A DNA stretch of 64,000 nucleotides from a virus (IMGVR_UViG_2778261631_000002); one strand, 5' to 3'. Shown: positions 38,483 through 42,085, counted from the stretch's first letter. Program-made: numbers and translations. Notes: generated from the letters alone by a model not told the origin.

Positions 38483-38839
38483 ATGGCTAAAATCGAGTAC
38501 CATCGCGATCGCGGTAATTACCTGGAAATATACGATCATGAATCTCTTAACGATATCAACGATGCGTTATATGAATACTGTGAAAAAACGAGCATCACAG
38601 ATGCACCTGATGCATTTGTCGAGATGCCGGTATATCTCCGCGACATCTATGCAATACGAACACCGCCCGTATCGGTGATTCACATTGGCTATGTCCGCCT
38701 GTCCATCGAAGAAGATGAAGATCGTTATATCGTGCGCCACTATACATTGGACAGAAAAGAACTTCCTAATGAATGGAACATGAGTAATTTCTACAACGGT
38801 GAATATGGCTTAAAATCCGCTAATAATTTACGGTCATAA
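38483..38839 (+). CDS. hypothetical protein
   Basis: 118-aa ORF immediately following the previous gene. Confidence 0.55.
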   Translation: MAKIEYHRDRGNYLEIYDHESLNDINDALYEYCEKTSITDAPDAFVEMPVYLRDIYAIRTPPVSVIHIGYVRLSIEEDEDRYIVRHYTLDRKELPNEWNMSNFYNGEYGLKSANNLRS

Positions 38840-39701
38840 TCTATACAGGCATGTATAACAACAACGAGCCTATTAGCTGTCAACAACGTTATTTCCTCAA
38901 ATAAGAAAAAGCAGAAAAAAAATTGTTTAAGGTCACAAATTGTGGCCTTGATGGAGGAGGGAGGCTTATTGGCTATGGCTAAAAATCAAATTAGACACTT
39001 CATGTTGCTGTAGCTCATCAAGATCCGAGGCCACAAAACCTTTTCCGAAAAACTTCACAAGTAACTCACTAGCCGCATCATTGTCACCTATTACACGAAA
39101 GTCATACGGCAACGTCGCAAGTTGACGATGTAATCCTGCTGAGAAAGTCGAATCTAACAGCGCCCAGAATTCCCACCGCAGGATAATACTCGCCTCTTAA
39201 TACTGTATATATGTTGTTACGATATGTTTTTCTGTCTCTAAAAAAAGATGTTAATAGAATGCTAACCATTGAAGGGGATAAAAATATACAATTCCAACAA
39301 ACGTTATTTTTAACAATTTTTTTCTTTGCGTTGACTTTCCCGGACACCTTGTCTGACCGAAGGTGCGCGAAAGCCACTTTTTCCTTCCTGAGTTATCCAC
39401 AAAGTTATGCACTTGCAAGAGGGCCATTTTCTACATATTGTGGTGGCTAACAGATGAAATGAATGTAGATTAATTGAAGATAAGGAGAAAATTTGAGATG
39501 CAATCATGACGTTAATAGATAGGGTCTGCATTACAGACCCCACCCGCATCAAGGAATTAGCCGTTCCCTGATGTTTTTCCGAAAACATGTGCCGTAAGCT
39601 CACGTTAACGACTTTCATTCACCGAATCCAACTATATAGGGGTTGGGTTTCTACGTCAACGTGAGCAAGTGCACCTTTACATTTGACAAGGAACCACCTG
39701 A

Positions 39702-39839
39702 ATGAACGCTTTTTTTCAGTTCCTGAGTGCATTTTTAGATGCGCCTATTATTAGCCAGATTCTGGCTATTATCCTCATCATCGTTTTGATTTTGCTTTTA
39801 AGGTCAGTAAAAAATGGAATTATGCACTGGCTTACTTAA
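39702..39839 (+). CDS. small hydrophobic peptide (45 aa), candidate membrane-active toxin-like ORF
   Basis: MNAFFQFLSAFLDAPIISQILAIILIIVLILLLRSVKNGIMHWLT with SD AAGGA; leader flanked by a long-range inverted repeat (CACGTTAACG … CGTCAACGTG); followed by the palindrome TGTTTCAGTGAAACA. Confidence 0.4.
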   Translation: MNAFFQFLSAFLDAPIISQILAIILIIVLILLLRSVKNGIMHWLT

Positions 39840-39914
39840 TGTTTCAGTGAAACATTAAAATCTCCTTGATGTGGAAACAATCATTTTCTGTATGTGCTGG
39901 TGGGCACCTGTAGT

Positions 39915-40277
39915 TCAGCTTTCGTTGGCATTTAACTTCGTCTTTGCTTTCTCCACCAGCAACTTCCAGATGCCTATTTCATTAGCAGCCGCCTTGATGG
40001 CGGCATAAAAAGCATCTTGCTGATCGTAACGCTGGATCTGTTTTTTCAGTTTTGCCTCCACCAATTTAATTTCATTACGTGCTTTCTGAAGCCGCATCAC
40101 CGCCCGGTTACATCTGTTCTTGTATAGCGTGTTAATCTCTGACAATTGCTTTAATTTACCAGCCTGACTGCGGATTATCGCCTCCCTGGCTTCTGCCGTG
40201 CGTCTCATCTGATCTCTTAAGAGTTCACCGTTTTCGATAATTCTTTCAAGGTGTTTGATGTGATCTGCAACTCTCAT
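39915..40277 (-). CDS. coiled-coil hypothetical protein (last gene of a 7-gene C1-controlled operon)
   Basis: 120-aa ORF. Confidence 0.55.
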   Translation of the reverse strand: MRVADHIKHLERIIENGELLRDQMRRTAEAREAIIRSQAGKLKQLSEINTLYKNRCNRAVMRLQKARNEIKLVEAKLKKQIQRYDQQDAFYAAIKAAANEIGIWKLLVEKAKTKLNANES

Positions 40278-41572
40278 ACTTCACCCTCGCTTGTATCACC
40301 AGCGTCCACCAACGACAATAAAGCCCTGGCCATCTTATGAACCAACAGTGCATCAATAATGCCAAGCGTATGCCCCGGCTTAATGTTTAATGCTGCCTCA
40401 AGATGACACCTTTCCAGACCGCTTTTCTCGGCTTGTTTATGATGATATGGCGTAATAACGTCGCCCAAAACACGGCTAATTCTTTCTCGTAATTGCTGGG
40501 TGCCAGCACACTTGATCGCTGTATCGTGGAGACGGTTAACCAGTTCGCGATAAACATGCGGCTTAATGCGGATACGTTCACCGGTGACGCCCTTTCCTGG
40601 CGCTGGCACCGAACTATCCGGAATATCCGGATAGTTGCCAGCCTCGTAAGCTACCCGCAGCCAGTGCATGAATGTTTCAGTGGACACACAACCACAGTCC
40701 ACATCGATTTTCCCGCGTTGCTGTTCCAGCCATTGCCCAAAATCCAACCTGTAAGTCTTACTTTGGCTTACAGGTTGGCTACCCTGAAGCATGGCAGCGT
40801 GGCAGGCATACTCAACGCCCTTAACTGCATCTGCGCAGTAGTTATAGCGATTGCATTCCACTAATTTCCGTTTGAGTTTTTCAATTGCCTGCGCGACATC
40901 AGCCTGTATTACAGGAACTGGCGGAACGGCTGTTTGCTCTCGAACGTCATTAGTCGCTATCGGTTCTGCTGCCAACTGACTGGCATATTTGTTAATGGTA
41001 ACGATAAGCTCTTGCTCAGCCTCATCCAGACAATCACCGATACCTCGCCTGTCACCGTCAAAATCATCGAAATCGGCACGAATCTTGGCAACCTTCAGGA
41101 TTGCGGACAACACCTCACTAGGAATTACCGGATAGTTGGTTGACGTTTCCGCGATTTCCCGAAAATTATTGGTTGACGAATTCTTGTTTTCCCGAAAGTT
41201 TCCGGACTGAAGCATGGCGGCGCGGCAGGCGTTCCAGCCATCTGCGTAACAATCTCTGTGTGTCTTGAAATATGTCACCGCCCTTGGTACATCGTTTACG
41301 TCTATTTCATCCGGCACAACCGGCGCAGGTGAGTCAGCATAAACAGGAATAACGTCCGGTTGCTCTTTATTGCTTTCATCCGTTAAAGCCCAGAATAATT
41401 TCCCGGCCGGATGTTTGAAAATATAAGCAACTGGTTCTGCTTCCAGCGATGCCAGAGCAATTCGTGCCAGTTCTTCCGCTTCTTCTGCTGGCAGTACAAC
41501 GTTGCTACCAGGTCCGTATGTTTCGCGCCACTGCTTGATTGTCAGTAGTCGCTCTTTGGTAATAGTGATCAT
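40274..41572 (-). CDS. hypothetical protein
   Basis: 432-aa ORF, overlapping start/stop with neighbours. Confidence 0.6.
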   Translation of the reverse strand: MITITKERLLTIKQWRETYGPGSNVVLPAEEAEELARIALASLEAEPVAYIFKHPAGKLFWALTDESNKEQPDVIPVYADSPAPVVPDEIDVNDVPRAVTYFKTHRDCYADGWNACRAAMLQSGNFRENKNSSTNNFREIAETSTNYPVIPSEVLSAILKVAKIRADFDDFDGDRRGIGDCLDEAEQELIVTINKYASQLAAEPIATNDVREQTAVPPVPVIQADVAQAIEKLKRKLVECNRYNYCADAVKGVEYACHAAMLQGSQPVSQSKTYRLDFGQWLEQQRGKIDVDCGCVSTETFMHWLRVAYEAGNYPDIPDSSVPAPGKGVTGERIRIKPHVYRELVNRLHDTAIKCAGTQQLRERISRVLGDVITPYHHKQAEKSGLERCHLEAALNIKPGHTLGIIDALLVHKMARALLSLVDAGDTSEGEV

Positions 41573-42084
41573 GCCGCGTTTCCTTCTTTCTTATTAACAA
41601 TTACACCGTCATATATTTCATTAAGGTGCCCTCTCAACTCCATGCGCCTTAATGCAGATAACATGTAATCGCATTCAACCTGCTTATTTCCAGTAAATGG
41701 CTTATCGTCAGGATTACCCCAACAGCAATTACCCTTGGGCCACCCATGTACTTTCCGTACTCTTCCGTTAACAACGTGAAGTAATCCCCAGCCAGGTGGT
41801 AAATCCTCAATTGAAATAATTCCCGGCTCACTAATAAAGAATCGCCAGTCGCCCATTCCAAGAGACGGATTTTTACGAAAACGCTTTTTTCTATCTGCCA
41901 ACAAGTCAGCACGAGAACACTTCGCCTCTATCAGGCATGATGCTGAATTTCTGAATCCCATAGCATCTGGCTGTTCTCCGGTACTGGTTACAGCTATAAA
42001 GCGGTCATGAAAACAAACCTTGAACCCGTTGCGCTTAAGGAACTTGTACGCAATCTGACAGAGTTCGCGGTGTGTTAACGCCAT
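41569..42084 (-). CDS. putative PD-(D/E)xK-family nuclease
   Basis: 171-aa protein with GEQPDAMGF … CLIEAKCS (PD … ExK spacing typical of the fold). Confidence 0.5.
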   Translation of the reverse strand: MALTHRELCQIAYKFLKRNGFKVCFHDRFIAVTSTGEQPDAMGFRNSASCLIEAKCSRADLLADRKKRFRKNPSLGMGDWRFFISEPGIISIEDLPPGWGLLHVVNGRVRKVHGWPKGNCCWGNPDDKPFTGNKQVECDYMLSALRRMELRGHLNEIYDGVIVNKKEGNAA

Positions 42085-42085
42085 A

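Follow-up and report, generated by a model that had tools for sequence, protein, structure and literature searches.

Face-to-face promoters upstream of a hydrophobic mini-open reading frame (mini-ORF) are a hallmark of type I toxin-antitoxin loci, as in hok/sok and ldr/rdl. Expression of nrdAB is controlled by DnaA both positively and negatively and is induced by DNA damage in an SOS-independent manner (bioRxiv 10.1101/2021.05.20.444958). Here we describe a locus in which an nrdA-like promoter, a long folded leader, an opposing promoter and a hydrophobic ORF of 45 codons stand together in the viral DNA IMGVR_UViG_2778261631_000002 (64,000 nucleotides [nt]; hereafter the window, with positions counted from its first letter). 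The window is a phage-plasmid of the P7/P1 type. We read the locus as a self-contained conserved transcription unit and tentatively favor its interpretation as a type I toxin-antitoxin-like module. A first-pass annotation of this DNA had pointed out the same resemblance, and the features that it described were all found where it had placed them.

Results

A conserved ORF for a predicted membrane peptide

The ORF (39702-39839, plus strand) encodes the 45-amino-acid (aa) peptide MNAFFQFLSAFLDAPIISQILAIILIIVLILLLRSVKNGIMHWLT, a candidate toxin. Its Shine-Dalgarno (SD) sequence, AAGGA, is located at 39688-39692 (plus strand), 9 nt before the ATG; the first-pass annotation had called this SD good, and it is indeed present, but it is moderate and not strong. 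The product is predicted to be a single-pass membrane peptide. As the annotation had noted, a single, very hydrophobic helix is predicted to cross the membrane at aa 16-33, with a Hessa-scale sum of -4.55 kcal/mol for aa 16-32 and a grand average of hydropathy of 1.56, and this hydrophobicity is retained across all lineages of the locus. With its 45 aa and predicted transmembrane helix, the peptide falls among the small hydrophobic peptides (<60 aa) that are typical of type I toxins. In P1-type plasmids, the ORF is annotated by the Prokaryotic Genome Annotation Pipeline as a "hypothetical protein" (WP_000123562.1). The P1 and P7 reference annotations omit it, and gene callers pass over it in P7-type records.

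Searches of phage, plasmid and Escherichia coli collections at the DNA level detected the locus in ~230 plasmids and in 216 of 5,426 complete E. coli genomes. Three DNA lineages were distinguished: the P7 type, to which the window belongs, the P1 type and a divergent type at ~81% identity. Beyond these, only one distant lineage, on IncFII plasmids, was found. Among the full-length copies in the fetched loci, the ORF was intact in all but one, which carries an insertion of the insertion sequence (IS) element IS1. The divergent lineage retains the ATG, the stop codon and the length of the ORF with 33 of 138 positions substituted, and its product is MIVFFQFLSAFLNAPVLSQVLAIVFIVVLIWFFKSVINRGVRWLI. 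The SD of this lineage survives as GAGGA with an 8-nt spacer, although there is an indel and the flanks carry substitutions.

For the ORF, comparison of the window type with the divergent lineage gave a synonymous divergence (dS) of 0.57 and a ratio of nonsynonymous to synonymous divergence (dN/dS) of 0.41. Conservation of the frame and of its coding signature, which had been proposed as a check on the ORF, was thus borne out. When the same substitutions were redistributed over the ORF by simulation, the frame remained open in 30% of simulations, and an open frame, a dN/dS and a hydrophobicity all at least as good as those observed were obtained jointly with a p of ~0.012. The substitutions were distributed over the three codon positions as 12:8:13.

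This ORF is the sole conserved ORF between the nrdA-like promoter and the operon that converges on it. The P1 counterpart of the locus is the interval from pmgV to hot, for which the P1 reference record lists only the small minus-strand ORFs upfM, upfN and upfO and predicted promoters, and the P7 reference record lists Upf91.3-91.7. The earlier description of a gene-free kilobase overlooked these entries, but it was effectively right, because the listed minus-strand ORFs are broken or absent in the divergent lineage. As genes, upfM, upfN and Upf91.x were ruled out on the same grounds, being absent or frameshifted there. The frames of upfM (Upf91.3 in P7; 39619-39732, minus strand) and upfN (Upf91.4; 39310-39618, minus strand) are not conserved, and both are probably wrong-strand annotation artefacts. 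UpfM matches phrog_31823, a PHROG without known function, over its full length and gave no other match. We are largely confident that the plus-strand ORF is the real gene of this interval.

A homologue of the peptide was found outside the phage-plasmids. A tblastn search with the divergent peptide returned a 33-aa ORF (E = 0.1) on IncFII plasmids of Klebsiella, Enterobacter and Citrobacter, with the sequence MVLLLDAFLSAPL[L/M]SQCAATVFLLLLIWLKKME. In two of these non-phage plasmids, from Klebsiella and Enterobacter (L062 and L063), it occupies positions 1992-2093. The start and stop of the 33-aa form coincide with the aligned core, the invariant positions common to the two forms are L-x-AFL-x-AP-xx-SQ...A...LI, and the SD context ACAAGGAA precedes the IncFII homologue as well. 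The two IncFII alleles differ by 5 synonymous changes versus 1 conservative change (p ~0.005, with the random synonymous share taken as ~1/4). The IncFII leader of ~110 nt shows 2 differences in ~100 positions versus 6 in 102 for its ORF. The homologue lies near a DqlB/AgrB type I locus, parA and a resolvase; in L063, the distance is ~1 kb to DqlB, which is annotated as a type I toxin of the DinQ-like kind, and to a match to the Rfam family AgrB.

Natural variants of the 45-aa form change the C-terminal tail only and leave aa 1-31 untouched. The conserved core can therefore be placed at about aa 1-36, in keeping with the length of the IncFII form. IS1 is inserted after codon 39 in the P1 type and at about codon 37 in the divergent type, a recombination junction follows residue 31, and two frameshifts also fall in the C-terminal tail. 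Loci with such events in the 3' third of the ORF include a metagenome contig (L085), GCA_003291425.1 (L091) and GCA_902846855.1 (L090). Either the A-rich run GTAAAAAATGG is a hot spot for IS1 insertion, or selection lies behind these independent events.

An nrdA-like promoter upstream of the ORF

The region at 39300-39438 (plus strand) is homologous to the upstream and promoter region of E. coli K-12 nrdA (blastn, 93% over 142 bp, K-12 positions 2344608-2344748). Two DnaA boxes were read from the plus strand, TTATCCACA at 39393-39401 and TTATGCACT at 39405-39413, and the arrangement TTATCCACA AAG TTATGCACT TGCAA is that of K-12 nrdA in all phage lineages, save for the first base of box 1 in P1. 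The two boxes and the -35 hexamer lie in a 26-nt core, TTATCCACAAAGTTATGCACTTGCAA, that K-12, the window and the divergent lineage share without a difference and that P1 matches from its second base on. The sigma-70 promoter predicted from the homology to the nrdAB promoter consists of TTGCAA (-35, 39413-39418), a 17-nt spacer and TATTGT (-10, 39436-39441) on the plus strand. The window and P1 types share this -10 hexamer, in place of which the divergent lineage has TACTGT or TACCGT. Similarity to nrdA ends at the -10, and the transcribed part downstream is unrelated to the nrdA leader. Transcription is predicted to start at ~39447 (± 3), in agreement with the nrdA start site, which lies 110 nt before the nrdA ATG.

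This promoter was in part already on record. In GenBank M95666 (1993), an "nrdA-like promoter" and a dnaA box are marked on what is the plus strand of the window, the P1 part so labeled corresponding to window positions 39377-39432. The P1 record likewise mentions similarity to an E. coli region for which two DnaA boxes are predicted. Identity to the K-12 nrdA upstream region is 93% in the window versus 82% in P1 and 78% in the divergent lineage, which suggests a later exchange of 39300-39438 with the host chromosome in the P7 type. On the minus strand, 39251-39427 holds a 58-aa YpaB-like ORF with 74% aa identity to K-12 YpaB.

A conserved predicted RNA structure in the leader

The first-pass annotation had described a structured leader. 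Structure was supported in silico, but the leader is predicted to extend much further 5' than had been held, from ~39447 at the nrdA-like promoter to 39701 on the plus strand (~255 nt). Within it, a core block (39478-39668, plus strand) aligns between the window type and the divergent lineage with ~16 differences in 188 positions (8.5%), versus 33 in 138 (24%) for the ORF. The block is thus about three times more conserved than the ORF, and its flanks are unalignable.

RNAalifold and explicit pair counts were applied to 14 distinct variants. Sixty-five pairs in 8 helices were obtained, and all 908 of 908 cells were paired. Five conserved plus-strand helices of the leader, H1 (39491-39520), H2 (39522-39540), H3 (39549-39571), H4 (39599-39610 with 39654-39665) and H5 (39624-39633 with 39641-39650), were each paired at 100%. 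Two compensatory pairs, both U-A to C-G, were found, one in the hairpin at 39522-39540 and one in the hairpin at the 3' end of the ORF. Six further changes affect one side of a pair only; each of them leaves a wobble pair on the plus strand and would give A.C on the minus strand, and no substitution at a paired position breaks its pair. Other substitutions fall in loops or linkers. Folding of a 383-nt region gave z scores of -4.1 for the plus strand and -4.8 for the minus strand. Support for a conserved RNA structure in the leader is real but thin, since one split between lineages accounts for nearly all of the variation.

Two symmetrical elements that had been noted earlier turned out to be longer than described. 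The inverted repeat of the leader pairs GCTCACGTTAACG (39598-39610) with CGTCAACGTGAGC (39654-39666) over 13 nt at 92% complementarity and surrounds a second hairpin, 39624-39633 with 39641-39650. The palindrome that follows the ORF is TTAATGTTTCA-G-TGAAACATTAA (11+1+11) and forms a hairpin over the stop codon (39836-39858, plus strand). Most P1-type copies have a 1-nt deletion in this palindrome. In the divergent lineage, the 3' hairpin has a different sequence and still folds: one of its pairs is compensatory (UA to CG), and another has changed from G-C to G-U. As a canonical terminator the palindrome was ruled out, since no U-run follows it.

The leader also contains a strong upstream SD, the consensus AAGGAG (39482-39487), followed after 10 nt by the mini-ORF ATG CAA TCA TGA (39498-39509); the divergent lineage has ATG TAA, a start-stop, in its place. 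This plus-strand element (39482-39509) may serve in ribosome loading or standby. The stop codon of the mini-ORF overlaps a second ATG, the start of a 21-codon frame at 39506-39571. That frame is open, but it was rejected as a conserved peptide because 8 of 9 substitutions are nonsynonymous, two of them forming the compensatory pair of H2.

The GG core of the SD of the 45-aa ORF is predicted to be paired, with an unpaired probability of ≤0.13 in three lineages. An anti-SD-like sequence, CTCCTTG, lies at 39862-39868 (plus strand), and its CCTTG is an island of conservation in the diverged flank. In the RNAalifold model, 39687-39691 is paired with 39864-39868, with an alternative pairing to the upstream SD, and CTCCTTG could pair with either SD. 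The start codon can pair perfectly over 8 nt with 39614-39621; this pairing proved to be specific to the P7 type and was discarded as a conserved element.

An opposing promoter within the leader

The first-pass annotation had proposed a search for an antisense promoter on the minus strand of 39600-39720, and a strong, near-consensus one was found. It matches the sigma-70 consensus at 10 of 12 positions, with TTGACG (-35, 39659..39654) separated by 17 nt from TATAGT (-10, 39636..39631), so that it spans 39659..39631. Only 7 sites with at least 10 of 12 matches exist on both strands of the 64-kb window, this promoter among them. It corresponds to the predicted PupfN of the P1 record and is unchanged in 14 of 14 variants; the loop of H5 has two variable positions, both of which are outside the -10 hexamer. 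Transcription from this site is predicted to start at ~39624. The promoter opposes the nrdA-like promoter, and the two predicted starts are ~178 nt apart, so that their transcripts would overlap by that length. A putative cis-antisense RNA (39505-39624, minus strand) would be complementary to the leader. Its predicted fold has three hairpins (-44 kcal/mol, z = -4.6), and the divergent lineage gives the same arrangement.

Further to the left, 38921-38950 (minus strand) holds an imperfect hairpin, AAGGCCACAA / TTGTGACCTT, with a T8 run 6 nt later that was unflagged by the terminator scan. In the P7 type, which lacks hot, leftward transcription that begins at the antisense promoter may stop at this hairpin. 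The predicted promoters P1upfM and P2upfM (39818-39879, minus strand) are not conserved and were set aside.

Genomic neighborhood

Across 38800-40300, the window shares 99.9% identity with phage P7 and 99.7% with several P1-like phage-plasmids; from 39363 rightwards, its identity to P1 is 96.6%. P7 (AF503408) carries IS903 at the window equivalent of ~39103, which is absent from the window; the P7-type arrangement is therefore uninterrupted here, as in phage SJ46. The interval belongs to a hypervariable region of P1-like phage-plasmids (PMC9603915). Knock-downs of upfN and upfO and published deletions show the region to be nonessential for lytic growth, upfM itself not having been targeted (PMC10695390). 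Within ~2 kb of the locus are phd-doc, humD and the LexA-regulated lxr. The hot gene, which encodes a homologue of DNA polymerase III theta, is present in P1 and the divergent lineage and has been lost from the window/P7 type.

To the right, seven abutting minus-strand ORFs (39915-44231) form the seven-gene operon at which, in the first-pass annotation, the ORF was described as pointing convergently; in P1, this operon is C1 controlled. No terminator-like structure lies between the end of the operon and the 3' end of the 45-aa ORF, so that operon read-through in lytic growth would be antisense to the peptide mRNA. In ~30 P1-like plasmids, those of the divergent lineage (L005, from position 2400 on, and L006), the place of the pmgV operon after the module is taken by a type I restriction-modification operon that begins with hsdM. 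The conserved sequence has its right-hand limit near window position 39900 (GTGCTGGTG).

Distribution of the peptide family

Exhaustive protein searches found only unnamed members of one small family. Word-indexed searches with a single sequence and with a profile recovered the same lineages only, as did a full HMMER scan of 1.84 billion representatives and searches of metagenomes and IMG/VR. Searches of the GTDB genomes with a protein pattern and a degenerate DNA pattern gave no confirmed homologue. Membership in a known type I family was not borne out, as no match was found to Ldr, Hok, TisB, DinQ and others or to an antitoxin RNA family.

Discussion

In the module that we propose, the nrdAB-type promoter with its two DnaA boxes would fire rightwards from ~39447. 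The ~255-nt leader of the transcript would fold into five helices, and translation would then yield a peptide of 45 aa that has a single, strongly hydrophobic transmembrane helix and a tail that is short and basic. The minus-strand sigma-70 promoter inside the leader would fire leftwards from ~39624 and yield an RNA complementary to ~110-180 nt of the leader. This antisense RNA, together with occlusion of the SD by mRNA structure, would keep the membrane peptide silent, and more of the peptide would be made when the nrdA-type promoter is derepressed (low DnaA-ATP or replication stress) or when the antisense RNA is lost. The sequences show that the ORF is conserved, that the plus-strand promoter is homologous to that of nrdAB, that the leader and its pairing are conserved and that the antisense promoter is present and invariant; toxicity, translational repression, the two start sites and the existence and length of the antisense RNA are points that we infer. 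We favor the type I-like reading because face-to-face promoters, a hydrophobic mini-ORF, a long folded leader and a target far 5' of the SD occur together, and because the promoter is stress linked and the neighborhood is one of plasmid maintenance and DNA damage functions, a layout known from type I loci such as hok/sok, ldr/rdl and tisB/istR-1. The resemblance proposed in the first-pass annotation stands as far as the conserved membrane ORF, the antisense promoter and the folded leader are concerned, but it does not extend to a known family or to a terminator.

Several results weigh against this reading. No canonical terminator was found by the terminator scan for the antisense RNA, and an intrinsic terminator scan found none for the mRNA, its single terminator-like match lying inside the ORF. 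The antisense promoter may have another role, perhaps no more than the expression of hot, toward which it also points from ~360 nt away in P1 and the divergent lineage. The IncFII homologue has no recognizable antisense promoter, and its leader is unrelated, giving no alignment with the P1 leader. No partner of the SD is consistent across lineages, the predicted partner differing among them, and the covariation rests essentially on one divergence event, one lineage versus the rest. The dN/dS of 0.41 is only moderate, and 19 of 45 residues differ. The peptide and its homologues had no meaningful match in Pfam, NCBIfam, PHROGs or PADLOC, a cmscan of 38800-40300 against Rfam at E ≤10 returned only four chance-level hits, and no paper was found that mentions the peptide.

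Many of these points would fit a peptide that is not a toxin, an alternative that we consider possible, if doubtful. The ORF would then encode a small inner-membrane protein, a modulator or accessory factor, that is expressed under a DnaA-controlled promoter with the replication and repair accessory genes hot, humD and lxr. The minus-strand promoter would mainly serve hot, and its overlap with the leader would be incidental or a matter of transcriptional interference. The coding, promoter and transmembrane evidence is equal to that for a toxin, and the position of hot downstream of the minus-strand promoter in P1 and the divergent lineage, the lack of a terminator bounding a small RNA, the lack of a toxin family match and the IncFII homologue without an antisense promoter all count in its favor. 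Tail-only variants that keep aa 1-31 likewise fit a tolerated, functional protein. However, the window/P7 type has lost hot, yet its minus-strand promoter and leader block are intact, and the conservation of the leader is far above the usual need of a simple 5' untranslated region (UTR). The combination of face-to-face promoters with a hydrophobic mini-ORF in a plasmid maintenance region also speaks for the type I-like module.

It is improbable that the ORF is untranslated and that the region is purely regulatory, made up of DnaA boxes, convergent promoters and structured RNA that acts as a hot 5' UTR, as a plus-strand small RNA or by interference with the converging pmg operon. Such a region would account for the conservation of the leader above that of the ORF, the codon-position spread of 12:8:13 in which third positions are not strongly favored, the survival of the open frame by itself in 30% of simulations, the omission of the ORF from P7-type gene calls and the equal folding of both strands. 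Against it stand the joint simulated p of ~0.012, an SD and ATG that are maintained across an indel, and hydrophobicity held in all lineages. The independent 33-aa homologue, with its 5 synonymous changes to 1 nonsynonymous change, the same SD context and an end at the aligned core, is a further argument for translation. Least probable is a small lysis, holin-like or superinfection-exclusion peptide of the P1 life cycle, a role that the first-pass annotation had also raised and that found no support: although the product is a single-pass membrane peptide in a phage genome and its gene converges on a C1-controlled morphogenesis-type operon, the gene has a host nrdA-like promoter and neither a late promoter nor a C1 operator of its own, P1 can grow lytically without the upfM-upfO interval (PMC10695390), a homologue exists on non-phage IncFII plasmids, and no PHROG with a lysis or exclusion function was matched.

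Significance of the locus

The nrdA-like promoter (GenBank, 1993) and the hypothetical ORF (RefSeq) are each already on record. In the literature, no paper was found that joins the two, names the peptide family or proposes an RNA-controlled toxin. We suggest, as a speculative and on balance unlikely generalization, that the P1-family phage-plasmids and some IncFII plasmids share an unrecognized family of type I membrane toxins (L-x-AFL-x-AP-xx-SQ), which in the P1 family would be under the control of a captured copy of the host nrdAB/DnaA-box promoter and held in check by a cis-antisense RNA. Phage P1 is a classical model, and it is the prototype of the phage-plasmids that are now spreading resistance genes in Enterobacteriaceae. 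If the type I-like reading is correct, the reference annotation (upfM, upfN) would be on the wrong strand, and the real gene would be that of a membrane peptide under host-like DnaA control. The locus would then be a second addiction or stress module next to phd-doc, a member of a new toxin family missed by profile libraries and the first locus of a type I-like kind to be linked to the DnaA/nrdAB regulon instead of LexA. In the wider generalization, the prophage would read the replication status of its host (DnaA-ATP, replication stress) and answer by depolarizing or arresting the cell, a DnaA-controlled counterpart of the SOS-controlled tisB and dinQ. Possible roles would include plasmid maintenance, dormancy under replication stress and the decision between lysogeny and lysis, and the locus could influence the stability of P1 plasmids, host physiology under replication stress and P1-derived vectors. 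Should the peptide prove nontoxic, a well-studied genome would still hold a small membrane protein that is driven by a DnaA-box promoter and has gone unannotated.

Comparison with known systems

The type I-like module resembles ldrD/rdlD (PF13940) in the placement of a cis-antisense promoter inside the 5' UTR of the toxin. The peptide shares with Ldr the order AF..(D)..AP, then a hydrophobic helix, then W and basic residues, and BLASTP aligned it to LdrD with 7 of 15 identities (LDAPIISQILAIILI / LAAPVIAGILASMIV, pairwise E of 0.002). The two differ in motif spacing and in length, 45 (or 33) aa here versus 35 aa, and cmscan of 38800-40300 found no Rdl match; the long direct repeats of the chromosomal loci are absent as well. 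Membership in the Ldr family was rejected, as the Pfam Ldr_toxin profile gave no hit at E ≤10 (LdrD itself scoring 93.7 bits) and hhalign gave a probability of 7.6%.

With hok/sok (pnd, srn), plasmid loci for post-segregational killing, the locus shares a site on a plasmid or prophage near other maintenance genes, toxin and antisense promoters that face each other, an extensively folded mRNA and a possible 3' anti-SD. IS elements are found at the 3' end in some natural copies of the locus, and the hok loci of K-12 likewise carry 3'-end IS insertions. Unlike in hok/sok, no 5'-3' tac/fbi pairing is conserved between lineages. A Hok/Sok identity was rejected, with no Hok/Gef hit in Pfam or NCBIfam, no Sok hit and no mok-like overlapping frame.

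With tisB/istR-1 and dinQ/agrB, the locus has in common an inner-membrane peptide that is very small and hydrophobic, a long 5' UTR with structure and, as predicted here, a toxin promoter under a DNA-stress regulator and an antitoxin RNA target far upstream of the toxin SD. For dinQ/agrB there is, in addition, the DinQ-like DqlB/AgrB locus ~1 kb from the IncFII homologue. TisB/DinQ membership was rejected, since there was no sequence or profile match and no IstR or AgrB Rfam hit in the window, the same tool having found AgrB in L063. In those systems, the antitoxin is a divergent, only partly complementary small RNA, whereas the antisense RNA proposed here would be truly cis-encoded from a face-to-face promoter. 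The regulatory sites also differ, being DnaA boxes of the nrdAB type here and not LexA boxes. In this respect the locus resembles the E. coli nrdAB promoter itself, with 93% identity over 142 bp, two DnaA boxes abutting the -35 TTGCAA and a homologous -10, from which a 45-aa peptide, and not a reductase, is encoded at this locus.

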